From positions 248,001 through 312,000 of the forward strand of contig CAUYUJ010000002.1 of assembly GCA_963575745.1 (NCBI GenBank): a DNA stretch of 64,000 nucleotides, written 5' to 3'. This stretch comes from Prorocentrum cordatum. Its lineage: Eukaryota. Below, in pieces: positions 3,651 through 64,000 of the stretch. A program made the translations under genes and the position numbers. Below the pieces are notes generated by a model that worked only from the letters and a program-made list of their open reading frames with translations, was not told where the DNA came from and searched no databases. Every line of letters begins with the position of its first letter. Position 1 is the first letter of the stretch.

Positions 3651-5149
3651 GAAAGGCGGCTCAGTAGCGTTAGGGCTTCACGCAGTTCTCAATAATTTCG
3701 ACGTTGTGTGGCTTCCTCTGCAAGATCGATGCCGGCCCATCCTTTGCCTCTGCGGGCTGGCGAGGGCTAGGGCGAGTCCGGCGCGTTGAGGTTTTTGTAG
3801 CTTCGGATGCAAAAGAAGGTGCGACGAGGAGATGTCAATGCGATCAAAGTAGGATATAGCGGGAACCTTACATACGCATGGGCTCAATATGCGAACAGAG
3901 ACAGCACGCCCATGCACTTCGAAGTACCAACCAACACCTTGTTAGCGGCATACACGAGCTGACACCAGCTATGGCGCGTTAGTTTAATGCGTGTTCGCTT
4001 TACTATCGGGTGCCGTGTGAGATCACAAGGCGCCCACAATATCCATTGAGATAATGGTCCGTTGGGGCCCGGATGCTCGTTTACATCTACGACAGAGCAT
4101 GTTAATCATTGTTCGTGGCTCAGTGTTTTGAGACACGTTAGGCATGCTGCATCGCGGGCCAGGAGGCCCCAGTACGCTTGCGCCAAAACGCTAGTCGCCT
4201 CTTGCCTCTGCCAGATGCGTGCTTTACTTGGTTGGAATGACATTTGGCGTGCTTTGCTTGGTTGGAATTCGGTTTTTGACTGTTCAAAATTGCGCTGCTG
4301 CCCTGTGCCTTCGGATCGTTACCTTAAGGCGACGATGTATAGACAAGCGATGTGCATTTTACAGATTAGGCTGGCACTTCTGGCGACCGGACTTCGGTCG
4401 AAGGGTGCGTTATTTGTTTTGCGTCTGTGCCCCGCAGGGAATGCAGTGTAGCAGCGCTTTGTCGTGATAGTCTTTACTGGTCCGCAAGCGTTGCGTTTGA
4501 CTTGCCCGACGCCCGCCGGCGCTTGGCGCAAATGCTGTTGTATTAGTGTTTCAAACAGCCCCCGGCCTTGATTTTCAAGAGGATGGGGAATGTAGGGGGG
4601 CAGGGGGGGAACACTACGGGAGGAGGACGAGGGGGCCCAGTACATTCAATATGCCTTAACAATACTGCAACACGTCCCCCCCGCCCGTCCGCCGAAGCCC
4701 CTACTCCATAAACTCCATGTGTTAACGGTTCTGCAGGAAATTCCCATTTGAAGCACGAACGCCCAATGGTCTTGCAATTCAGGCGGACGCCTCATTTGGA
4801 AAACAGGCTGAGTTTCAAAGTTCACATTCTGAAGACGGCGACGAAGTAGGACCCGAAAATCCAAACTGTTTGTCTGCAGGAATCACGTTGTGAAGTGTCA
4901 TTTCCGGGATCATAAACGGGGAGGGGGTCTTTGGCGAAACGGCTTCGCCTGCCCTGCCGACGCGTCCTTTGGTCAGGCGAGCATGAGGGGGAGGAATGGT
5001 TGAGCCAGGGGGGGAAGGAATGGATGAATGAGGAGGGGGGGAAGAGGAGGAAAAGGAAAAGGAGGAGGTGGAGGAGGAGGGAAAGGAGCCAAGAAGGGAA
5101 AAGGGGAGGATGATGAGGAAGGGGAGGAGGAAGAAGAGGAGGATAACTT

Positions 5150-7824: not shown

Positions 7825-8585
7825 TCAGCAGGAGGGGAAGAAGGAGGAAGAAGGGAGGAGGAGGAGGAGGAGGAGAAGGAGGAGGAAGAGGAGGAGGGGG
7901 ATGAGGAGAACCAGGAGAAGGAGAAGGAGGGAGGAGGCAGGAGAAGGAGGAGGAGGAGGAGAAGGAGGAGAAGGAGGAGGAGGAGGGGGAGAGCAGGAAA
8001 TGCTCCCTCGTTACTTCTCTCTCCCGCCCGCAGTCGGGTCCAAGGATTCCGCACACCCGTGTGTACATCGGCGCTGCTTGGCCAGGCCGGAGGCCCAACG
8101 CACACGAAGACCAGGTCCAGGGTGGGTCTGACCCCCACCTCCTCCTCCTCCCCCCTGTCCTCCTCCCCCCCCTCCTCCTCCTCCTCCCCCCCTCCTCCTT
8201 CTCCTCCTCCTCCTCCTCCTCCACCTCCTCCTCCTCCTCCCCTCCTCCCTCCTCCTCCTCCTCCTCCTCCTCCTCCTCCTCCCCTCCTTCCTCCTCCTCC
8301 TCCCCCCCTTCCTCCTCCCTCCCCTCCTCACCTCCTCCTCCTCCCCCTCCTCCTCCTCCTTCCTCCTCCTCTCCCCCTCATCCTCCTTCCTCCGCCTCCT
8401 CCTCCCTCCTCCTCCTCCTCCTCCTCCTCCTCCTCCTCCTCCTCCTCCTCCTCCTCATCTCCCCCTCCTCCTCCCCCTCCTCCTCCTCCCTCCTCCTCCT
8501 CCTCCTCTCCTCCTCCTCCTCCTCCTCCTCCTTCTCCTTCTCCTCCTCCTCCTCCTCCTCTCCTCCTTCTCTCCACCTCCTCCAG
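7825..8585. repeat. (GGA)n tract, unique spacer, then (CCT)n tract
   Basis: Direct reading. Confidence 0.95.
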
Positions 8586-18299: not shown

Positions 18300-19490
18300 A
18301 TAGGAGGAGGAGGAGGAGGAGGAGGAGGAGGAGGATGAGAGAGGAGGAGGAGGAGGAGGAGGAGGAGAGGGGGAGGAGAGGAGGAGGAGGATGAGGAGGA
18401 GGAGGAGGAGGAGGAAGGAGGAGGGGAAGGAGGAGGAGGAGGAGGAGGAGGAGGATGAGGAGGAGGAGGAGGAACGCTGCTCACCCGCCGCCAGTCTGGC
18501 CCTCGGGGCGACGGCCCGCAGCCTCGTGATGCTGGCCGGCAACGGCACCTCGCCGGCGCTGCTGGGCGTTCCCGCGAACTTCAACGTCAGCGCCGCCTCG
18601 TCCCACCCGTCGGTGCTGGCCGTGGAGGTCGAGGCGCCAGAGGAGGAGGAGGAGGAGGAGGAGGAGGAGGAGGAGGAGGAGGAGGAGGAGGAGGAGGAGG
18701 AGGAGGAGGAGGAGGAGGAGGAGGAGGAGGAGGAGGAGAGGAGAGAGGAGGAGGAGGGGGAGGAGCAGGAGGAGGAGGAGCAGGAGGAGGAGGAGGAGGA
18801 GGGGGAGGGGGGGAGTGAGGAGGAGGAGGAGAGGAGGAGGAGGAGGGGAGGAGGAGGAGGAGGAGGAGGAGAGGAGGAGGGATGAGAGGAGGAGGAGTAG
18901 GAGGAGGAGGAAGGAGGAGGAGGAGCTGGAGGAGGAGGAGGAGAGAAAAAGAGAAAAAAGGAACAGGAGGAGGAGAAAAAGGAGGAGGAGGAGGAGGAGG
19001 AGGAGGAGGAGGAGGAGGAGAGGAGGAGGAGGAGGAGGAAGGAGGAGGAGGCGGCGCTGCTCCGCCCGCGGGGGCACGGCGGCAGCACGGGCTCTGCAAA
19101 GCTCGGAGGAGGGCCAGAGTCGAACCAGCGGCGGCTTTCTCCGGCGTTTTTGTTTCCGCTCCAGAGGGCCTCCCGGAGGCTGGCAACAGCTGGATCCGCC
19201 ACGAGGCGGTCCCTGGGATCCGACGCTCCCTTCGGCTCATTCCTTCTTCTCCTCCTCGATCCTCCTCCTCCTCCTCCTCCTCCTCCTCGTTCGTCCTCCT
19301 CCTTGTTCCTCCTCCTCCTCCTCCTTCTCCTCCTCCTCGTTCGTCCTCCTCCTCGTTCCTCCTCCTCCTCCTCCTCCTCCTTATCCTCCTCGTTTCTCCT
19401 CGTCTCTCCTCCTCGTTCCTCCTCCTCCTCGTTCCTCCTCCTCATCCTCGTTTCTCCTCCTCGTTCCTCCTCCTCCTCCTCCTCGTCCTG
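18300..19490. repeat. (GAG)n tracts followed by a (CCT)n tract
   Basis: Direct reading; encloses putative exon C. Confidence 0.95.
18472..18633 (+). CDS. Putative exon C of the same gene
   Basis: 162 nt of GC3-rich coding-like DNA between two (GAG)n tracts. Encodes ERCSPAASLALGATARSLVMLAGNGTSPALLGVPANFNVSAASSHPSVLAVEVE, with a Big_2-like SS.PSV motif and sequons NGT and NVS. GAG|GC donor. Confidence 0.6.
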
Positions 19491-28660: not shown

Positions 28661-30382
28661 AGGTTTTGGCTCGGCTCGGGGTCGGCCCGAAGCGGCCCGA
28701 ATCTCCCACGGCGCGAAAGCATAGGCCGTCGCGGTCCGTTCTGGCCCGTAGAATCCCGTAGAATCCCCCCCCTTCCTCCCTCCTCCCTCCTCCTTCCTCC
28801 CTCATGCTTCCTCCTATGTGTTAGAACATATGAAACAACAGATCGCCAGGTTTTCCCAAGGAGTCCCAGTTTTTGATAAACTTGTTCACAGCGCTCATAT
28901 AGTTAGACTCGCGAGGTTTGAATTCGAGCGAAGGGTAGACGATCCTCTCCCACGACCTCCGTGTCATCCCGCGGTCATGGGGCCCTAGCCAGTTCCCCGT
29001 CTTTGTCGCGTCGCCCTCCCTACTCTTCGCTCGGCCCCGTCTTGGGTCACGCATGCCCCTGGCGGTCTTCGGGGCGGGGCGCTAGATTTCGGCGATGCTC
29101 CGAGAGTCCACCTCGCCCCGATTTCAAGTCCCTTGCGGGAATTTCTTCGAACCTCGAGTAGATCGAGGTAGTTTAGTCGATCAGAGGTTCTTCGGAGCGC
29201 TTGTCTTGTCTTGTCGTGTCTTCTCTTGTGTTGTCATCCTTCCTCCCTCCTCCCTCCTCCTTTCTTCCTCCTCCTCCTAAGGGCAACGTTGCTCGGCGGC
29301 GATCCCGCGGGGGGGGAAGCGGGCCTTCTCAGATCGGGGGCGGCCAAGAGGGGGGTGATGACTAGGGGGATAGCATGGCCAGGGCCATGGGATCCCACCA
29401 CAATTCACGGTGCCTCTTCATGTTTAAATCGTCCCCGCCCCCCCCTGGGCCGCACGCGTGCCGCCGGCCATGGTTCCCCCCCCCTTCTGGACACACCCCT
29501 TTTGGCCTCCCCCGACAGAACGCCGTTAAGAAGGCCTCCTCCTTCTCACTTCCCCCCTCGCTCGCCGCCGAGTCACGGTCAGCGTATGACGTATAGCGTG
29601 TACTGCCAGCGCTTTTCGAAGAGCGGATCGGGCGAGCACGTTGAGTGCAACACCTGTTAGCACGTATTCGAGGCATTCGCTGAGCCCCAAGAGGAGGTGC
29701 AGAGGGTTTGAATGGGGGTACGCTTAGCGTCGTCTTTTGAGCGTCCGTTTACCCAAGGCAAAAAAAAACACGCAAAGCGAACGTTCACACTAATCGTATG
29801 TAGCACCGCATAGCCTCCAGCCCGATGTCCTGCCAGTGGTGAGACAGAATGGGCTCCGGTTGGGATGCTTCAGGGGCAACGTTAGGGGCAAGGAGGCCTC
29901 CCCTCGAGGTTTTCGGACGTCTTCGTCGGTTCTTGGCAGCTTTGCGCCTCGACGAGAGCGTTCCCCCAGGTTCCCGTGTCGTCCCGAAGGGCCGCCGGAG
30001 GCCCGATTTTTTGGTTGACCCGGAAATTGCCAGCCTTCGAAGAGATCAAGGGCAACGATCAGGTGGGGGATAGGTTCAGAGGGGAAGAGTATCGACCCCC
30101 AATCGCCCATTCATCGCCGATTGGGGCCTGATTGCCAACCCTCCCCTGATCGTGCGTTTTCGCTATCGGGGTCTCGTCGCCGATTTATCGGCAACGTATC
30201 GCCGACTCAAGATCGATGCTTCCCCCCATTGAGCTGTTTCCCTTCTATCGTTGCCCCTCAGAAGATGGGCAAGGTTGTGAGTAGCGAGGATGAAGAGTGG
30301 GGAGCTGGGAAGCAACAGCAGGCGGATTATCGGAGTGAGAGGAGGAGGAGGAGGAGGAGGAGGGTGAGGAGGTCTAAACGAT

Positions 30383-31732
30383 TATGATTATGATGTTGAT
30401 GGTGTCGATTATGATGATGATGGTGATGGTGATTGTGATGGTGATTGCGATGGTGATTGTGATGGTGATGATGATGCCCATGTTGTTGATGATGATGATA
30501 ATGCTGCTGATGATGCTGATGAGGATGATGATGATGATGATGACGGTGATGGTGATAATGATGCTGGCGGTGATAACGATGGTGTTGTTGATGATGATGT
30601 TGATGCGGATGATGAAGATAATGCTGATGACGAAGACGATGCTGCCTGCTGATGATTATGACGACGATTATGTTGTCATTGATAATGGTGCTAGTCATGC
30701 TGATTGTATTCCGGACGGTGATGCTTATGATTATGATGTTATTGATGTTGATGATGATGATGAGGTTGATGATGCGAGTGATGATGATGATGTTGGTGAT
30801 AACGACGATACGTATGGTGGTGGTGAAGAGGGTGGCGACGATGATTGCGATGCTGATGACGGAGAATATGACGATGATGATAATAATGATGATGCCGATG
30901 ATGATGTTGATGATGCTGATGAGGATGACGATCATAAGCATGAACATGATCATGATCTTGATCTTGCTGATGCTGCTGATGCTTGTGATCATGGTGATGA
31001 CGATGAGGACGACGACGACGACGATGATGATGATGATGATGCTCATGCTGATGATGATGATGATGAGTATGTTGATGCTGATGCTGGTGCTGATGCTGAT
31101 GCCGATGCTAATGCTGGTGCTGATGCTGCGGATGATGATGGTGATGTTGATCATGATGATACTGATGATGATGATGATTGTGATGATGGTGGTGATGGTG
31201 CTGGTTATGATGATGATGATGATGATGATGATGGTGGGTGCGACGATGATGTGGATTATGACGATGACGACGACGATGATGATGATGACGATGATGATGA
31301 TGATGCTGATGATGCTGATGCTTCTGATGATGAGGATGATGCTGCTGATGATGATGATGATGATGATGCTGATGCTGCTGCTGATGATGATGGTGATGAT
31401 GGTGATGATGAGGCTTATGATGATGATGTTCTGATAATGATGATGATGATGGTGGTGCTGATGAAGATGATGCTGATGCTGATGATGATGAATGTGCTGA
31501 TGATGATGCTGATGATGATTATGCTGATGATGATGAAGATGATGCTGATAATGATGGTGATGCTGATGGTGCTGATGCTGATGATTATGATGATGATGAC
31601 GATGAGTATGCTGATGATGATGATGATGATGATGCTGATGATGATGATGATGGTGCTGATGATGATGAGGTTGTTGCTGATGATGATGATGATGGTGATG
31701 ATGGTGATGGTGATGATGCTGCTGCTGATGAT

Positions 31733-31763
<31 letters not shown>

Positions 31764-31779
31764 CTGATGCTGCTGATGA

Positions 31780-31813
<34 letters not shown>

Positions 31814-31871
31814 GGTGGTGGTGATGATGATGATGATGATGATGATGCTGATGATGATGATGATGATGATC

Positions 31872-31960
<89 letters not shown>
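30383..31960. repeat. Long degenerate (GAT)n microsatellite
   Basis: Direct reading; pure GAT at the right end. Confidence 0.97.
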
Positions 31961-58244: not shown

Positions 58245-60280
58245 TGTCGTCGTCGTCATCGTTTCGTCCGTGGTCCGTCGTCCGTCGTCCGTCGTCCGTC
58301 GCCCGTCGTCCGTCGTCAGTCGTCCGTCGTCCGTCGTCGTCCGTCGTCGCCTTCGTCGTCGTCCGTCGTCCGTCGTCTGTCGTCCGTCGTCGTAGTCGTT
58401 CGTCGTCGTCGTCGTCGTCGTCCGTCGTCCGTCGTCGTCGTCGACGTCGTCGTCGTCGTCATTGTCGTCGTCGTCGTCGTAGTCGTCGACTGGCACCCAG
58501 CCTCCGTCGTAAGTCGTCGTTGTCGCCGTCGTACGTCGTCCGTCGTCCGTCGTCGTCGTCCGTCGCCCGTCGTGCGTCGTGCGTCGTGCGTCGTGCGCCG
58601 TCCGTCGTCCGTCGTCCGTCGTCCGTTGTCGTCCGTCGTCGTCGTCGTCCATCGTCCGTCCTCCGTCGTCCGTCGTCGTCGTCGTCGTCGTTGTCAGTCG
58701 TCGTCGTCGTCTGGCGTCCAGCCTCCGTCGTAAGTCGTCCGTCGTCGTTGTCGCCGTCGTCCGTCGTCCGTCGTCCGTCGTCCGTCGTGCGTCGTCGTCG
58801 TGCGCCGTTGGTCGTCCATCGTCGTCGTCGACCGTCGCCGTCGTCGTGATCGTCGTCCGTCATCGGTCGTCCGTCGTCGTCGTCCGGCATCCAGCCTCCG
58901 TCGTCTGTCGTCTTTTGTCGTCATCCGTCGTCTTTACCGTCGTTGTCGTCCGTCGTTTGGCGTCCTGCGTCGAGCGTCCGTTGTCCGTCGTCTTTCGTAT
59001 GTCGTGTTTCGTCCGTCGATCGTCGTCCGTCGTCTGTCGTCTGTCGTCGTAGTCGTCCGTCGTCGTCCACGTTGTCGTCGGTCGTCGTCGTCCGTCGTCG
59101 GTCGTCCTTCGTCCGTCGTCCGTGGTCCGTCCTCGTCGCCATCGTCGTTGCCGTCCGCCGTCCGTCGGCCTTCTTCCGTCGTCAGTCGTCCGTCCGTCGT
59201 CCGTCGTCTCCTTTGTTGTCGTCGTCCGTCGTCGTCGTTGTCGTTGTCGTTCGACGTCCGTCGTCCGCCGTCCTATCGTCCGTCGTCATCCGTTGTCGTC
59301 TTCGTCGTCGTCGTCGTCCAGCGTCGAGCGTCCGTTGTCCGTTGTCCGTCGACCGTCGTCCGTCGTCGTCGTCGTCGTCGTTTCCGCCGTCGTTGTCGTG
59401 GGTCGCCGTCCGTCGTCCGTCGTCCGTCGTCCGTCGTCGTCCGTCGTCCGTCCCCGTCGTCGTTGTCGTCCGGCGTCCAGCGTCCGTCGTCTTGTCCGTT
59501 CGTCCGTCGTCCGCCGTCCGTCGACCGTCGTCCGTTGTCGTTGTCGTCGTCGTCGTCGTTGTCTTCGTCGTCGTCGCTCGTCTTCCGTCGTCTGTCGTCC
59601 GTCGTTCGTCGTCCGTCGTCCGTCGTCCGTCCTCCATTGTCCGTCGTCCGTCGTCCGTCGTCCGTCCTCTTCGTCGTCGTCCGTCGTCCGTCGGGCTTCT
59701 TCCGTCGTCCGTCGTCGTCCGTCGTCTTTCTCGTTATCGTCGTCGTCCGTCGTCCGTCGTCCATCGTCCGTCGTTCGTTGTCCGTTGTCCGTCGTCCGTC
59801 GTCCTTTCTCGTCGTCGTCGTCGTCGTCCGTCGTCCGTCGGGCTTCTTCCGTCGTCCGTCGTTCGTCGTTCGGCGTCCGGCGTCCGTCGTCCGTCGTCAG
59901 TCGTCCGTCGTCCGTCCTCGTCGTCGTCGTCATCGTCCGTCGTGCGTCGGGCTTCTTCCGTCGTCCGTCGTCCGTCATCGTCCGTCGTCTTCCTCGTTGT
60001 CGTCGTCGTCCGTCGTAGTCGTTGTCGTCCATCGTCGTCCATCGGCCGTCCGTCCATCGTCCGTCGTCCGTCGTCCGTGTCCGTCCGCCGTCCATCGGCC
60101 GTCGTCCGTCGTCCGTCGTCCGTCGTCGTCCGTCGTTCGTCGTCGTCGTCGTTCGTCTTCCGTTGTCTGTCGTTTGTCGTCTGTCGTCCGTCGTCCTTCG
60201 TCCGTCGTCCGTCGTCCGCGTCGGCGTCGTTGTCGTCCGCCGTCGTCGTCGTCTGTCGTCGTCGTCGTCGTCGTCGTCGT
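58245..60280. repeat. ~2-kb (CGT)n/(CCGTCGT)n compound simple repeat
   Basis: Direct reading. Confidence 0.97.
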
Positions 60281-61771
60281 TCTCGCCTCCCCCGCTGCCA
60301 CCGCCGCCGCCCCGCGAGAGCACCCCTACCCTGGCGGCGCGACGGCCAGGTGAGGCAGGAGGGGACGGATCCGGTTCGGGTCTGGAGGTTTCGGGGAGGG
60401 TTCGGGTTGGCGCTCGGTGGGCTCCGCGACCTTCTGGCTGCGGACATGGCACGACGGGAGGTTCCTGGCAATTTTTGCCCTCCAGGGGCCCTCGCCAGAC
60501 CCCAGGACCGTCCCAAATCGACTTGTGATGAATACCCGGGTGCAGACCTTCGGAGGGCACGGTGCTCGAAGTGAGGCTCGAAGATCACGACGTCGGAGAT
60601 CAGGGCAGGGGAGGGGAAGGATCGGGGGCTCGTGGAGGGGGATTGGGGCTAGGAAGCGAACGCAGTTGGATGCTCACATCGGGCGATCGCAAGCATGTAT
60701 TAAGGGGGCGTGGATTAGCGACGGCACCCGTTTCCCAGGGGAAACGCGAATTTCCGCCGCCGAGCGAGGCGGCACTGGCCGCATTTTGGGGAGTGCACCT
60801 CCTCCGATCCATGGATTTGGCGACCGCGCGCCAAATCCATTGATCGCTAATCCATGTTTGCGCGCCCCCGATCACAGTTCTCTCTTCCTGGGGCCGCTTC
60901 GATCGACTTCCACTTAAGTGCCGCAACAAAAAACGGGCCGTTTTCGCCGGCATTGGTGCGTAGGCTCTCCTCGTCAGGTCACGCGTAAGCGCCCTCATCT
61001 TCAACGTGCCGCTCTTGTGGCCCGCGTAAGCCGCGGCGTCAGGTCGTTGTATCATCTCGCATAAGACCCGTGTTTGCTCGTCGCTCACTTGTACGTCCCC
61101 CCGGAGGCAGGGATGGTTCGGGCCAGAAGTGCCTCCTGGCACCCTCAGGGTCAGCTGGCGCCGAGGGCTGGCCCATTCTGCCCTCACGGCCAGTCTTCGG
61201 CCTCGGCTTCGATGCTGGACCGTTGCGTGCCCCTTGGCCATGGTGTCTCGCAAACTGTCTGATCTGAGGCAGTGTCGCCGTCGGCAACGAACAACATTCA
61301 GGAGGGAACAAAACACACAGACACAATTAACAGTCGATTTCCCAGAAATACATGTGGGAAGTGGAGGGGAAGACAAAAATCCAGAACATATGGGAAACTA
61401 TGCGGAATATTGTTATTTGTATGTATTTATTTGTGTGTCCTTGGGTGCCTTGAAACATGGAAGTGCCTTCTCGATTTTGGCCTCTGGACCACGTTTCTGT
61501 GGACCCCTTTGCTGTCAAGAGCCGCTCCTGACGGGGCCGGGTGGACCCCGAGAGCCGGCTCCGTGCCAGTCTGGGGTCGGAGGGGCGGGGCGACCGTCGA
61601 CCCGCGAACCTTTAGGTGGGCTTGTTTTCCACCGCCACCACCTCCCCCTCCTCCTCCTCCTCCTCCTCGTCCTCCTCCTCCTCCTTCTCCTCCTCCTCCT
61701 TCTCGTCCTTCTCCTCCACCTCCTCCTTCTCCTCCTCTTCGTCCTCCTCCTCCTCCTCCTTCTCCTCCTCC

Positions 61772-61793
61772 TCCGTAGCCATTTTGGCTCAAG
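61772..61793 (+). other. Complete genomic copy of the dinoflagellate spliced leader (DinoSL), retroposed
   Basis: TCCGTAGCCATTTTGGCTCAAG is a 22/22 match to the DinoSL consensus DCCGTAGCCATTTTGGCTCAAG. It is followed by ATG rather than a GT donor, so it is not an SL RNA gene. Confidence 0.97.
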
Positions 61794-64000
61794 ATGGGTT
61801 GCTCGGGGGGCTTTCAGCCTCCGTGCTTCACTGGATCGCACTACCGTGCGCAGGCAAGAGTGTGTGCACTCTGGCAGTCGGGCGGCCTCCTTCCAAACTC
61901 ACGCGCGCCATGGCGGGGAGCGGCGGCGTGGGTGCTGGGCGTGGGGGAGGCGGCCGCGCGGCGTGGCCTGCGAAGTGGAAGTGCTCGGTGTGCGACTACT
62001 ACAACTTCGCCGAGAGGGCGTGCTGTCGCAAGGGGTGCCAAGCTGCGGGGTGGCCAGCGCCGCGGCAGCTGGGCGCCTTTCCTCCGCTGCGGGGGTGGCC
62101 TGCAGGCGGCGGCGGTGGTGGTGCTCCTGGCGGCGCTGGCGGCGGGCGCGGCGGGCGTGGGGCAGGCGGCGGCAAGCCTCCCACACGTGCCCCGTGGTGG
62201 CGAGGCGGAGAAGGTGGCGGCCGTGACGCTGGTGGCGCCGTGGAGCTCAGCGAGGAGCAGCGCAGTGGCTTCGTGTGCATGGCAGAGGCCGACTTCGCCC
62301 TCACCGCCGCGCTCCTGGCCCCGAAGGTCCGCGAGCAGCTTCTGCAGGCACGGAGGCTGCGTGAGGGCGGACTGGGGGCCGAGCTGTCCAAGGACAAGAC
62401 GGTCAAGGCGGCCCAGGTGCAGGCGGACGCCAAGGTCTTGCAGGTCAAGAAGTTGGAGGGCCAGCTGGAGCAGGCAAAGGCCAAGGCGGTGGCGGCCATC
62501 AACGAGTCGGCCAGCCTCGCGGACAAGTTGGTGCTGCTGCGGAAGGAGTGCGACGAGGCGGCGGCCAAGGCACGCGAGGCGCTGGCGGCTCAGCGCACCA
62601 GGGTGGCGGCCGAGGAGGCTGAGGCGGCGGCAGCAGCCGCCGAGCCGAGAGCAGCACCAGCAGCCTCCCTGGAGTCGATACAGGAGGCGATCGGCGGCTT
62701 GTCGAGGGACGAGATCGCGAAGCCCGGGAAGGTGCTTGCGGAGCTCAGCGGCATACCAGGCGCCGCCGCCGCAGCGTGGGCGCCTCCCCGTGCGCCTGTG
62801 GCAGCGGCGGTCCCTGTGCCCTCGGCGGTGCCAGCAGCAGCGCAGCAGGTGGACGCTCCCAAGGAGGAGGGGCCTGGCGTGTCGCAGGCGGCGCAGCAAG
62901 CGTGGCAGGACATCACGTGCGGGATTGAGGACCCCGCCAAGAGGGAAGCAGCGGAGCAGTTGCTGGGCGACGCCAAGAAGATGCGGACGGAGGTCAAGCA
63001 GATGGAGGAGGAGTCCTAGCAAGAAGTGTGGGGTCTGGAGGATCTGCACGGTCAACGTCAATGCGTTCAGCAACCTGGGAAAGTGCATGGCGGTGAGTGA
63101 GGTGCAGGACTGCGACGCCATACTAGTCCAGGAGACGAGGCTCCTGGAGGGAAGGAGCAGTGATGCGGAGGCGCAGCTCCGCAGCCAAGGGTGGCGGGCG
63201 AGAGGCACGCCTGCAGTGCCGTCAGCGGCAGGAGGCCTCAGCACAGGAGGCCTCCTCACCATGGTGAGGAGGAGCCATGGCATGGCGGAGGTGCAGGACC
63301 AGCAGGCAGCGGTGCTGGTGGCAGGGCGAGTGCACCTGTGTTGGGTGTCAGGCGTGCTGAGCAGCGGCTTCTTGCTCGCCAACCTCTACCTGGAGGCGGG
63401 GGTCGGCCTCAACGATGGCAACGTGGCCAGCCTCAGGAGGCTGGCAAGGAGGTTGAGGCAGTGCCGCAGGGACTTCGTGGTGGGCGGCGATTGGAACCTC
63501 ACGGAGGAAGAGTTGCAGGCAGGCGGGGTGCCCGACATGTTCGACGGCAAGGTGGTCAGGCCCGCCTCGCCCACGTGTGCAGCGTCGGGGAGGACCATCG
63601 ACTTCTTCCTGGTGTCCAGGGGGCTGGCTGCGCTGGGTGTGCGGGTGGTGGAGGCCTCGCCAGTGTACCCGCACTCGGCGGTGATCCTCGAGATCCGCAG
63701 GCAGCAAGAGGAGGAGCGCTTCAGGCTGGTCCAGAAGCCGCGGACCTTTCCTGAGGTTCGGCCGCAAGGGTGTTGTGAGAGAGACCACGGCAGCAGCTGG
63801 AGGCAAGCCAGGATGAGGGTGCAGGAGCAGCTCGCGTCGGTGCTGAGGTTCGAGGGTGAGGCCGCAGCGAGGAGCACCCCACGTGCTGAGGAGGAGGCCC
63901 CTCAGCCCAGCAGCAGTGGTGGCGCAGCAGGTCAGCGCACAGCTAGAGCTGGCCAGGAGATTCCCAGGCCAGTGAGGGGCAAGGGAGCTGAAGGGGTGTC
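61794..64000 (+). CDS. LINE ORF2 (pol), open to the window end; apurinic/apyrimidinic-like (EEP) endonuclease domain at ~63036-63700
   Basis: Manual translation gives the APE motifs in order: WRICTVNVN, AILVQETR, LANLYL, FVVGGDWN, RTIDFFLVS, YPHSAVILEI. I found no in-frame stop between ATG 61794 and 64000, which explains its absence from the ORF track. The endonuclease call is strong; use of 61794 as the start is inference. Confidence 0.85.
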   Translation, partial: MGCSGGFQPPCFTGSHYRAQARVCALWQSGGLLPNSRAPWRGAAAWVLGVGEAAARRGLRSGSARCATTTTSPRGRAVARGAKLRGGQRRGSWAPFLRCGGGLQAAAVVVLLAALAAGAAGVGQAAASLPHVPRGGEAEKVAAVTLVAPWSSARSSAVASCAWQRPTSPSPPRSWPRRSASSFCRHGGCVRADWGPSCPRTRRSRRPRCRRTPRSCRSRSWRASWSRQRPRRWRPSTSRPASRTSWCCCGRSATRRRPRHARRWRLSAPGWRPRRLRRRQQPPSREQHQQPPWSRYRRRSAACRGTRSRSPGRCLRSSAAYQAPPPQRGRLPVRLWQRRSLCPRRCQQQRSRWTLPRRRGLACRRRRSKRGRTSRAGLRTPPRGKQRSSCWATPRRCGRRSSRWRRSPSKKCGVWRICTVNVNAFSNLGKCMAVSEVQDCDAILVQETRLLEGRSSDAEAQLRSQGWRARGTPAVPSAAGGLSTGGLLTMVRRSHGMAEVQDQQAAVLVAGRVHLCWVSGVLSSGFLLANLYLEAGVGLNDGNVASLRRLARRLRQCRRDFVVGGDWNLTEEELQAGGVPDMFDGKVVRPASPTCAASGRTIDFFLVSRGLAALGVRVVEASPVYPHSAVILEIRRQQEEERFRLVQKPRTFPEVRPQGCCERDHGSSWRQARMRVQEQLASVLRFEGEAAARSTPRAEEEAPQPSSSGGAAGQRTARAGQEIPRPVRGKGAEGV
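61910..63019 (+). CDS. LINE ORF1-like protein (369 aa): RanBP2-type zinc finger, Gly/RGG-rich region, coiled coil
   Basis: Starts at GCCATGG. WKCSVCDYYNFAERACCRKGC (61976-62038) fits W-x-C-x2-C-x3-N-x6-C-x2/3-C. GGRGGRG follows, then an Ala/Glu/Lys helical region (VKKLEGQLEQAKAKAVAA...). Stop TAG is at 63017-63019. The ORF-track start at 61616 lies in upstream microsatellite flank. Confidence 0.85.
   Translation: MAGSGGVGAGRGGGGRAAWPAKWKCSVCDYYNFAERACCRKGCQAAGWPAPRQLGAFPPLRGWPAGGGGGGAPGGAGGGRGGRGAGGGKPPTRAPWWRGGEGGGRDAGGAVELSEEQRSGFVCMAEADFALTAALLAPKVREQLLQARRLREGGLGAELSKDKTVKAAQVQADAKVLQVKKLEGQLEQAKAKAVAAINESASLADKLVLLRKECDEAAAKAREALAAQRTRVAAEEAEAAAAAAEPRAAPAASLESIQEAIGGLSRDEIAKPGKVLAELSGIPGAAAAAWAPPRAPVAAAVPVPSAVPAAAQQVDAPKEEGPGVSQAAQQAWQDITCGIEDPAKREAAEQLLGDAKKMRTEVKQMEEES

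Follow-up and report, generated by a model that had tools for sequence, protein, structure and literature searches.

A complete dinoflagellate spliced leader (DinoSL) is the first sequence of a LINE in the 64-kb stretch of DNA analysed here (the window), and the same junction between SL and LINE recurs in other data. In this family the SL appears to head 5'-complete copies as a rule and to be no peculiarity of the window locus. We give a probability of about 0.7 to the explanation that best covers the whole, namely that the family's RNA was capped with the SL and copied in full by target-primed reverse transcription, with a junction to a (CCT)n repeat at the window locus and the SL as the normal 5' end. 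Such a LINE would have its RNA tagged like an ordinary gene message and then copied whole into DNA.

A spliced leader at the head of a LINE

On the forward strand, TCCGTAGCCATTTTGGCTCAAG at 61772-61793 agrees with DinoSL DCCGTAGCCATTTTGGCTCAAG at 22 of 22 positions in a direct sequence comparison, and it heads the element as the first-pass annotation had claimed. The match is the only one in the window: a DinoSL 21-mer was found once at up to three mismatches and never in 100 shuffles, and no other SL-like site was seen in the 64 kb. ATGGGT stands directly 3' of the SL, in place of the GT intron expected in an SL RNA gene. A DinoSL that immediately precedes the unit without belonging to such a gene is the arrangement by which a retroposed trans-spliced transcript is recognised, and the locus shows it.

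Upstream, the 5' flank of the insertion is an imperfect (CCT)n microsatellite, which TRF places at 61641-61774 on the forward strand (period 3, 44.7 copies, 83% matches); this confirms the earlier statement that only (CCT)n precedes the SL. The repeat forms a 134-nt pyrimidine tract on the sense strand, directly upstream of the SL. Because the first three letters of the SL (TCC) double as the last letters of the repeat, a 3-nt microhomology at the 5' junction, only 19 nt of the SL are unambiguous. Arrays of (CCT/AGG)n are frequent in the window, which holds 20 of them, amounting to about 5% of its bases, and contains no N. No recognisable host gene was seen in the 23 kb upstream, and Pfam scans gave no convincing match among 113 ORFs of at least 195 aa across the whole window or among 82 ORFs of 100-194 aa within 38-61.7 kb.

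The integrated SL contains two AG dinucleotides on the forward strand that could act as trans-splice acceptors. Splicing at the terminal AG (61792-61793) would rebuild an identical RNA 5' end, whereas splicing at the internal AG (61777-61778, in GTAG followed by CC) would leave a 15-nt relic behind; the published 15-nt relic form CCATTTTGGCTCAAG (PMC12014239) implies use of the internal site. Since the internal AG is the first one 3' of the pyrimidine tract, relic-bearing daughters are predicted; none was seen, and CCATTTTGGCTCAAG at up to one mismatch has no match in the window outside the SL itself. The absence of relics can be accounted for equally well by splicing at the terminal AG and by SL-headed copies that seldom give rise to new ones. 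Two earlier claims thus stand in part: the SL does end in AG behind a pyrimidine tract, but another AG lies nearer the tract, and tandem relics are indeed missing, but their absence is not specific to terminal-AG splicing.

Between SL and ORF1 lies a leader of 116 nt (61794-61909, forward strand), the distance given by the first-pass annotation, with the ORF1 ATG at 61910. The leader opens with an ATG (61794-61796; A at -3, G at +4) that is the sole ATG upstream of ORF1 and lies in the reading frame of ORF2. ORF1 itself (61910-63019, forward strand; 369 aa) is intact and carries a putative N-terminal RanBP2-like zinc finger, followed by a Gly/Arg-rich stretch and a long Ala/Glu/Lys/Gln-rich region that looks helical when judged by eye. 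The finger-like motif, WKCSVCDYYNFAERACCRKGC, occupies residues 23-43 (61976-62038, forward strand), as placed by reading together with a weak match of residues 22-37 to PF00641, the RanBP2 zinc finger (E 0.012, 15.3 bits, below the 27-bit cut-off). Two further copies of ORF1 were found as proteins, P0001 (96% identical over 246 aa) and P0153, neither of which matched any Pfam family, and 11 of the 21 listed ORF1-frame variants from other copies are synonymous.

The start position of ORF2 follows the end of ORF1 at a distance of 1 nt. Its 5' part (63021-64000, forward strand) is open for all 326 codons to the window end; RT, 3' end, tail and target-site duplication of this copy would lie beyond base 64000. 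It contains an apurinic/apyrimidinic-type (EEP) endonuclease domain at about 63048-63665 on the forward strand (Pfam PF03372; E 6.4e-5, 23.3 bits, just under the 24.5-bit cut-off), and a profile of 29 ORF2 relatives matches structures of exonuclease III/APE1 (best E 2.6e-7) and the L1 endonuclease 2v0s (E 0.0074). ORF2 has 1784 relatives at E<=0.001. RVT_1 lies downstream of the endonuclease match in 10 of the 16 that were scanned, RNase H is present in P0024 and P0154, and P0002, at 46% identity the closest relative, aligns colinearly with P0154 (1492 aa) along 614 aa. This combination of an ORF1 with an endonuclease ORF2 whose relatives carry RT supports the assignment of the unit to the APE-type LINEs, in keeping with its first description as a LINE. 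Fragments 97% identical to ORF2 are labelled green alga in one source, which conflicts with a dinoflagellate host unless that data set is mislabelled or mixed.

Two features of the coding region are new in this analysis. The first is that the frame of ORF2 stays open across the leader and all of ORF1 (61794-63020, forward strand), a run of 409 codons free of stops and of internal ATGs. No stop was observed there against 6.4 expected; a stop-free frame was reached in 4 of 100,000 synonymous-codon permutations and in none of 100,000 draws from pooled codon usage, and in the ORF2 part, taken as control, stops were not depleted. With 23% Arg, the translation of this stretch is Arg-rich, and it lacks the appearance of a conserved protein. 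A stop-free frame that starts from the ATG behind the SL suggests that the SL may be the leader of a dual-coding mRNA.

The second is the first codon of ORF2 (63021-63023, forward strand), which reads AAG in the window copy and ATG in other copies, where the ORF2 ATG follows directly behind the ORF1 stop as TAG-C-ATG. In contigs from four public runs (X1, X2, X3 and X8), T replaces A at 63022 at depths of 16.7/16.7, 105.6/110.7, 19.2/19.2 and 2.8/2.8, respectively. With its own ORF2 ATG altered to AAG, the window copy is probably impaired; the earlier description of the element as intact-looking holds for ORF1 and for the open 326 codons of ORF2 but not for the ORF2 start.

Recurrence of the junction in other copies

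We aligned the contigs of the four runs onto the window. In 4/4 runs, every contig that reaches the first base of the LINE extends over the final 11 nt of the SL, as follows from the mean depth of the bin 61707-61807, which is 25/101 of the depth at 61805 in all four. Individual junction contigs span 61783-62420 with 14 differences from the window (X1, record 1), 61783-62147 with 4 differences (X2, record 9) and 61783-62009 with 2 differences (X8, record 25); at least two junction variants are present in X3 (a 1-nt deletion at 61805, depth 12/50.3) and at least two in X2 (37.4/62 depth).

The alignment is cut at a masked repeat (61626-61782), and the X1, X2 and X8 junction contigs exceed their aligned parts by 16, 11 and 13 letters. 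From these lengths, and with the side taken from the table, the contigs appear to end 5, 0 and 2 nt upstream of the SL. Ends near the SL start are what one would expect of copies that have the SL in common but not the sequence upstream of it. The kinds of the runs are guesses ('DNA?' or '?'), and a contig that stops where the SL starts might reflect the 5' end of an RNA instead of a genomic branch. Contigs also drop rare variants, and rare relic-bearing or master copies could be missed in them.

Over the LINE body, copies diverge by 0 to >10% among the contigs of 4/4 runs, which carry three organism codes. The family has many copies, presumably dispersed among different flanks. A junction that recurs in this way weighs against a one-off retrocopy, and likewise against copies headed by a conserved 5' UTR other than the SL; the first-pass annotation had named such copies as the finding that would speak against it, and among these contigs none was seen. 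Its proposal that an SL-capped RNA was fully reverse transcribed is well supported by the recurrent SL-LINE junction in the four runs, and applies family-wide.

Origin and propagation of SL-headed copies

In the explanation that we prefer, the RNA of a multicopy APE-type LINE would receive DinoSL by trans-splicing exactly before its first AUG, and target-primed reverse transcription would run to the very 5' end of the SL-capped RNA. The cDNA end would then be joined to (CCT)n through the TCC microhomology, making the SL the first 22 nt of the DNA copy.

How the copies propagate is a separate matter, on which we tentatively favour one route at somewhat less than even odds. SL-headed copies, having no promoter upstream of their first base, would be re-expressed by outside transcription, as in SL-relict retrogenes, and their RNA would be re-capped at an AG of the integrated SL. 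The 22-nt SL would be the whole leader of the mRNA, whose first AUG would open the ORF2 frame and whose second would open ORF1.

A stricter possibility, which we regard as somewhat doubtful, is an obligate self-regenerating cycle in which SL-headed copies are the sole sources and trans-splicing of read-through RNA, always at the SL's terminal AG, would restore exactly one SL per generation. The window copy has a single SL and no relic, and the X1, X2 and X8 contigs would by their lengths span the whole SL and not break 17 nt before the LINE, where a mixture with relic-bearing copies would branch. The pyrimidine tract directly upstream also suits such a cycle, as does a divergence of 0 to >10% across three organism codes, which would be hard to sustain from one immortal source locus; promoter-less dinoflagellate retrogenes are, moreover, described as often expressed (PMC5585692, PMC6050394, in the parts concerned). 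However, of the two AGs the internal one lies nearer the tract and is the one to which published relics point (PMC12014239, relevant part), relic-bearing copies may exist among the rare variants that contigs drop, no host gene was found upstream to supply read-through, and the window copy lacks an ORF2 ATG.

Similarly open to doubt is the idea that one or a few sources keep a promoter and an outron before an AG followed by ATGGGTTGC, with SL-headed copies being first-generation and mostly dead-end. It explains the single SL and the lack of relics without an unusual choice of AG, it suits a window copy that looks impaired at 63021-63023, and Symbiodinium LINEs are reported with conserved 5' UTRs, the SL going unmentioned in the relevant part of that report (PMC5890265). 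Yet every contig at LINE base 1 covers the last 11 nt of the SL in 4/4 runs, a count from which a rare master would drop out, and for the family to persist in data of three organism codes, its source locus would have to be very long-lived.

A good deal less probable is that the SL encoded in the DNA is transcribed as the element's own 5' end, as mimicry or as an internal promoter, with transcription initiated at the first base of the SL or close to it, possibly helped by TTTTGG, and with no trans-splicing beyond the first capture. The SL is conserved at 22/22, against differences of up to >10% in the body of other copies; DinoSL relics have been proposed as promoter-like elements (PMC5585692, in part), and the 5'-terminal SL of a dinoflagellate RNA virus has been interpreted as mimicry (PMC10235124, in part). 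A perfect SL is, however, equally expected in a young copy. An encoded SL would also miss whatever the SL RNA's own cap contributes. Separately, we observed an RdRP contig with a terminal SL (L067).

A one-off retrocopy, with the SL at the window locus only and a different 5' end on other full-length copies, would agree with the single copy in the 64-kb window but is very improbable given the junction contigs that differ from the window by 2 to 14 positions in X1, X2 and X8 and the junction cover in X3. Elements that target SL genes do exist in other trans-splicing organisms. Here, the least credible account is that the element inserted site-specifically into an SL RNA gene, or that the arrangement is an artefact of assembly or cDNA, in view of an upstream (CCT)n in place of an SL gene array, an APE-type endonuclease, a whole SL that runs into ATGGG and not into the GT intron of the SL gene sequence (PMC12584245, in part), a junction present independently in four other data sets and a window without N.

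We return to the route that we tentatively favour. Taken to its full extent, that an autonomous LINE lineage has ceded both its promoter and the definition of its 5' end to the trans-splicing apparatus of the host, with the SL rebuilt in each cycle and a dual-coding mRNA, the proposal is unlikely. If true, it would mean that sense copies in transcribed DNA are cut out and capped at the AG of their own SL, that the balance of two proteins is set by initiation on an SL-length leader, and that the element is a prime candidate for the RT behind the mass retroposition of SL-tagged dinoflagellate genes.

Comparison with known systems

Like SLACS, CZAR, CRE1-2 and NeSL-1, the window element is a non-LTR retrotransposon physically linked to the SL in a trans-splicing organism. 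In those elements, the insertion site is the SL exon of SL RNA genes and the endonuclease is restriction-enzyme-like. The window element, by contrast, itself starts with the entire SL, is preceded by a microsatellite, has no SL intron after the SL and encodes an APE-type endonuclease, a distinction that the first-pass annotation had drawn and that the uninterrupted SL upholds. As judged from the 5' flank, which is the one flank within the window, the whole SL, the (CCT)n and the EEP/APE-type endonuclease rule against an SL-gene-specific element.

Among dinoflagellate elements, SymbioLINE and other Symbiodiniaceae LINEs share the arrangement of an ORF1 with an ORF2 for EN-RT(-RNase H) (PMC5890265, PMC8045281). 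They are described there with conserved 5' and 3' UTRs, target-site duplications and no poly(A), the SL being unmentioned in the relevant parts, and their ORF1 is a DNA methyltransferase, in contrast to the putative zinc-finger, probably helical protein of the window element. In Schistosoma mansoni, genomic SL sequences merged to (retro)transposons were read as trans-spliced, retro-transcribed elements (PMC5832876, in the part concerned). That case concerns a flatworm with another SL and six loci treated in passing, with assembly chimeras possible, and that part of the report gives neither a family-wide 5' terminus nor a coding arrangement such as the window LINE has.

R2 and L1Tc/ingi LINEs are freed from co-transcripts by a 5' HDV-like ribozyme (PMC4035085, relevant part), and the job proposed for the SL is the same, that of defining the RNA 5' end when transcription starts in upstream host sequence. 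In contrast to the ribozyme-processed LINEs (R2, L1Tc, RTE), the element gave no ribozyme match, as no Rfam family, HDV-like ribozymes included, matched either strand of 60500-64000 at E<=1; the proposed agent, the host trans-spliceosome, would add a cap and a leader.

The closest parallel is with DinoSL-relict retrogenes, the 'recycled' processed cDNAs of dinoflagellates (PMC5585692, PMC6050394, PMC12014239; Slamovits & Keeling 2008 as cited there), in which, according to the relevant parts of these sources, a DNA-encoded SL likewise stands directly 5' of a transcription unit and marks a reverse-transcribed trans-spliced RNA, and expression without an own promoter is thought common. Song et al. 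(PMC5585692, PMC6050394) found 'RNA-dependent DNA replication' enriched among relict-bearing genes, with no SL-headed LINE described in the parts concerned, and a Symbiodinium preprint (10.1101/783902, in part) presents DinoSL-relict genes and RT genes as not overlapping in function. Unlike a relict retrogene, the RNA encoded in the window is that of an autonomous retrotransposon, which is likely to supply the machinery itself and whose family appears to have the SL as its regular terminus.

The spliced leader and the LINE behind it

The 22-nt dinoflagellate spliced leader (SL, or DinoSL; TCCGTAGCCATTTTGGCTCAAG) was located by direct reading at 61772-61793 on the + strand, and its 21-nt core has this single match in the 64-kb window with up to three mismatches, and none in 100 shuffles. 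The first-pass annotation had described a perfect 22-nt SL as the first sequence of a LINE, preceded by (CCT)n, separated from ORF1 by 116 nt and free of tandem relics, and this description holds throughout: an imperfect (CCT)n tract of 44.7 units lies upstream (61641-61774), the ORF1 ATG stands 116 nt past the SL at 61910, and there are no tandem relics at the locus, because a search with the 15-nt remnant of an earlier SL, allowing 1 mismatch, returned nothing but the SL itself. The final TCC of the tract doubles as the first three letters of the SL, so that flank and element cannot be told apart over 3 nt, and the SL has 19 nt to itself. Directly 3' of the SL stands ATGGGTTGC, where an SL RNA gene would have its GT intron (compared with the gene sequence in passages of PMC12584245). 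The window contains 20 (CCT/AGG)n arrays (~5% of bases; CCT on the + strand, ~2%), and placement of the SL exactly at the end of one by chance is somewhat unlikely; a preferred target or selection for a pyrimidine tract may account for its position, and a single locus cannot discriminate between the two. More generally, long arrays with trinucleotide or 7-nt units dominate the window (30380-31960, 58246-60280, 8138-8583 and 18640-19051), including (GAT)526, 2 kb of (GTC)n/(TCGTCCG)n and numerous (CCT/AGG)n arrays, and almost no Pfam-recognisable coding sequence was found in it (113 + 82 ORFs).

ORF1 (61910-63019, + strand, 369 aa) carries a RanBP2-like zinc-finger motif at residues 23-43 (Pfam PF00641, E 0.012, under the cut-off), then a Gly/Arg-rich stretch and a long Ala/Glu/Lys/Gln-rich region that, judged by eye, looks helical. 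ORF2 begins one base past the ORF1 stop in the +1 frame, with all 326 codons open to the end of the window, and matches the EEP endonuclease (EN) family PF03372 at E 6.4e-5 (23.3 bits versus a 24.5-bit cut-off). A search of 1.84 billion representatives returned 1784 ORF2 relatives at E≤0.001; 10 of the 16 scanned with Pfam have a reverse transcriptase (RT) behind the EN match, one of those 10 with RNase H as well, and RNase H is also present in the 1492-aa protein P0154 (Pfam). The closest relative, P0002 (640 aa, 46% identical), is colinear with P0154 over 614 aa. The single ORF2 sequence found no meaningful match in the PDB. With a profile of 29 relatives, the best match was to structures of exonuclease III/APE1 (E 2.6e-7), and the L1 endonuclease 2v0s was matched weakly (E 0.0074). 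Because of the ORF1 layout, the EEP match of ORF2, its RT-bearing relatives and these structure matches, we identify the element as an APE-type LINE; the window holds its 5' 2.2 kb, with the RT, tail and target-site duplication predicted past base 64000. Near the C-terminal end of the EN domain (63663-63677, ORF2 residues ~215-219) the window copy reads Pro-His (VYPHS), as does the consensus of the 29-sequence alignment, where the His (H218) is almost invariant; L1 and APE1 have Asp-His at what is presumably the matching catalytic site.

Copies and junction contigs in other data

No second copy of the LINE was found in the window by blastn or tblastn. The ORF1 query found no relatives among 228 pattern matches in metagenome contigs, where a 20-nt leader pattern had no matches, and the ORF2 query found none among 9 pattern matches in viral contigs. 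For prokaryote-genome contigs, ORF1 alignment gave no relatives among 202 pattern matches and the ORF2 query gave two among 231, from Nocardia sp. and Glycomyces salinus; at 27-29% identity these were rejected as LINE copies and taken as bacterial EEP proteins. The ORF1 protein search returned one match, P0001 (246 aa, 96% identical), whose cluster mate P0153 (259 aa) is a second further copy; both terminate at the stop of the window's ORF1. A peptide spanning the SL, leader and ORF1 N-terminus (P0152) was found in none of 22 protein candidates, and ORF2 had no match among longer proteins, blanks that are weak evidence in either case. Four fragments (P0005, P0006, P0007 and P0108) are 70-97% identical to the window's ORF2 and come from a EukProt set named Pyramimonas sp. 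CCMP1952, a green alga, with peptide numbers up to 9 million. This label does not agree with a perfect DinoSL, which leaves a misnamed or mixed set, or a host that is in question.

Among the public runs listed, 20 hold part of 61500-64000; no RNA run appears as a holder among 24 runs. We aligned Logan contigs from four of them: X1 (a marine metagenome), X2 (organism A), X3 (organism B) and X8 (organism C). In all four, numerous short contigs cover the LINE body, at 0 to >10% difference from the window. Masking of 61626-61782 restricts alignment to the 3'-most 11 nt of the SL; contigs crossing the SL-LINE junction were found in X1 (record 1, 61783-62420, 14 differences), X2 (record 9, 61783-62147, 4 differences) and X8 (record 25, 61783-62009, 2 differences). 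Mean depth in the bin 61707-61807 is 2.0 in X1, 15.3 in X2, 12.7 in X3 and 1.21 in X8, and depth at 61805 is 8.07, 62, 50.3 and 4.9, respectively. The former is 25/101 of the latter in each run, which means that every contig reaching the first LINE bases also covers the 11 SL letters; by this arithmetic no contigs break off at 61794 in the four runs, with the proviso that rare variants drop out of contigs. Two or more variants of the junction are present in X3, where a deletion of 1 nt at 61805 has a depth of 12 out of 50.3, and likewise in X2 (37.4 out of 62).

The junction contigs exceed their aligned parts by 16, 11 and 13 letters (X1, X2 and X8). If these tails, whose letters were not read, lie in the masked zone, as the cutting of reads at the mask implies, the lengths place the contig ends 5, 0 and 2 nt upstream of the first base of the SL. 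Such ends would be the expected break in a k-mer graph if copies share the whole SL and diverge beyond it, while a mixture with relic-bearing copies would be expected to branch 17 nt before the LINE and not at the SL start; because the kinds of run were guessed, an end at the SL start could alternatively be an RNA 5' end. With junction contigs in three runs and junction cover in X3, the SL head proves to be more than a one-off, and judging from one locus and this contig evidence it appears to be common to LINE copies elsewhere.

Depth is zero in all four runs in the bins 61101-61201 and 61505-61706, holes that are uninformative, and a 3'-ward rise of summed contig depth in X1 and X2 was set aside as a sign of 5' truncation, the measure being unusable. 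Just upstream of the LINE, the AT-richer interval 61303-61504 is a highly abundant repeat in all four runs (summed contig depth 760 to 35000 versus 5 to 300 on the LINE). Many loose contig ends there read ATATGGGAAAATATGGGAAGTGGGG, internal skips span 41-52 nt, and the repeat may be a SINE- or MITE-like or satellite family. Within it, ATTTTGGC (61476-61483) matches the SL core over 8 nt, which may be due to chance.

The exact 21-nt DinoSL also occurs in 119 IMG/VR stretches (L001-L119), mostly giant-virus MAG bins, none of which matches any of 12 LINE queries at a limit as loose as E≤1. Most are unlike the window in being very AT-rich (median GC 0.21), and several, such as L024, L060 and L061, hold multiple SL copies, some exactly 50 nt apart; possible sources are arrays of SL RNA genes from an AT-rich host that were binned as virus by mistake, or SLs carried by viruses. 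L047, too, has ATG immediately behind the SL. L067 is a 5.3-kb contig headed by the DinoSL, which lies on the minus strand at 5001-5021, at the end of the locus. The contig codes for a viral RdRP (PF00680, E 4.9e-7) and is similar to the +ssRNA virus transcripts of dinoflagellates with an SL head that passages of PMC10235124 report.

An open ORF2 frame across ORF1

In the other copies, position 63022 is T, by depth 16.7 of 16.7 in X1, 105.6 of 110.7 in X2, 19.2 of 19.2 in X3 and 2.8 of 2.8 in X8. This gives an ATG at 63021-63023, so that in the family ORF1 passes into ORF2 by TAG-C-ATG. AAG stands there in the window copy, which has lost ORF2's own start codon and on this comparison is a minority or derived form.

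The ORF2 frame is open from an ATG at 61794, directly behind the SL (A at -3, G at +4), through all of ORF1: 409 codons with no stop and no further ATG. When synonymous codons were permuted within ORF1, this frame acquired a mean of 6.4 stops, and none in only 4 of 100,000 trials; draws from pooled codon usage gave zero stops in 0 of 100,000. The depletion sits in codons 124-370, where 5.8 stops are expected. Before a codon starting with A, Leu and Val are encoded by CTC or GTC in six of six cases, versus NTG in 32 of 39 elsewhere (Fisher P 2e-4). Controls show no such depletion, whether in the other frame of ORF1 (4 stops versus 7.0 expected, P 0.12) or in the ORF2 part (9 versus 12.0, and 8 versus 7.6). 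A frameshift artefact was rejected as the cause, since P0001 and P0153 share the ORF1 stop and the signal lies in codons 124-370.

The translation of this frame is rich in Arg (23% R), and its conservation is poor: 16 of the 21 variants listed alter it, 10 alter ORF1 and none creates a stop. What is maintained thus seems to be the openness of the frame and not a protein. On an SL-capped mRNA, the leader would be 22 nt long, the first AUG would open the ORF2 frame and the second would open ORF1. Short leaders favour leaky scanning, and initiation on a 22-nt leader could set the ORF1:ORF2 ratio. Alternatively, the frame may be kept open for frameshifting. We infer that either reading ties the coding design to the SL junction. 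Some relatives have long N-terminal extensions before the EN, but these are of ordinary composition (R 5-12%), in contrast to the Arg-rich window frame, and look like in-frame domains; they therefore lend no support to the same overlapping design.

Origin of the SL head and comparison with known systems

The first-pass annotation had proposed that the element's RNA was SL-capped and fully reverse transcribed. This reading stands, at a probability of roughly 0.7, on the SL being the exact LINE terminus and on a junction common beyond the locus. The RNA of the family would be SL trans-spliced immediately 5' of its first AUG, as in other dinoflagellate mRNAs, and target-primed reverse transcription would then run to the RNA 5' end. 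The TCC common to the SL and the microsatellite would fit microhomology at the 5' junction, a frequent feature of LINE 5' junctions. Insertion into an SL RNA gene, the habit of SLACS, CRE and NeSL elements, is contradicted by the flanks and the endonuclease type, and the distinction drawn earlier from those elements is upheld by the (CCT)n flank, the missing GT intron and the APE-type endonuclease.

Because the SL is the element's terminus, there is no room within the element for a promoter upstream of it. Promoter-less retrocopies in dinoflagellates are often expressed and trans-spliced anew, according to passages in PMC5585692, PMC6050394 and PMC7245778, and the promoter-less, self-regenerating cycle first suggested for this LINE would be a reasonable extension of the SL-capped-RNA reading. 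No host gene for read-through is recognisable in the 23 kb upstream (Pfam, 113 + 82 ORFs); matches to CitMHS, in a (GAT)n tract, and RskA_C (E 7e-4) were dismissed as low-complexity noise. The first AG past the pyrimidine tract is the SL's internal AG (61777-78), and the published relic CCATTTTGGCTCAAG, in a passage of PMC12014239, implies that this AG is used as an acceptor. Recycling through it would yield relic-bearing daughters; none were seen, which leaves three options. Splicing at the SL's terminal AG, as originally envisaged, gains a new supporting hint from the coding layout that starts at the SL, but the choice of AG is a specific difficulty, the internal AG coming first, and we regard it as possible but doubtful. 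A long-lived source locus with a non-SL outron is about equally possible. Transcription of the encoded SL itself is improbable.

LINEs face the problem that a promoter cannot be copied, yet the 5' end must stay defined. An SL head is a third possible way to meet it, beside internal promoters and 5' ribozymes. SL-headed full-length copies would also point to a particular LINE machinery as one that copies SL-capped RNA all the way to the 5' terminus; an SL-headed LINE family thus makes the identity of the element that reverse transcribes SL-capped RNAs directly testable. The stop-free ORF2 frame from the AUG behind the SL further hints at unusual ORF2 translation. These claims to significance rest on one locus plus contig evidence.

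DNA-encoded SL relics occur in more than a fifth of dinoflagellate genes, and retroposed genes with DNA-encoded SLs in front, which the window LINE resembles, are well known. The element that reverse transcribes SL-capped RNAs is stated to be unknown, with LTR elements favoured, in passages of PMC5585692 and PMC6050394. Song et al. list 'RNA-dependent DNA replication' as enriched among relic-bearing genes (a passage of PMC5585692), and RT genes with relics may be among the retrogenes listed by Song et al. 2017. In passages of open-licence PubMed Central and bioRxiv texts, we came across no dinoflagellate LINE family reported to start with the SL. For Schistosoma, a passage of PMC5832876 notes six genomic SL exons merged to transposable elements. 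R2 and L1Tc are freed from co-transcripts by HDV-like ribozymes (in a passage of PMC4035085), whereas the window LINE has no Rfam ribozyme match at E≤1 on either strand of 60500-64000. Symbiodinium LINEs have conserved 5' UTRs, with no SL described in the passages concerned of PMC5890265; the LINE in the window, in contrast, is headed by one.
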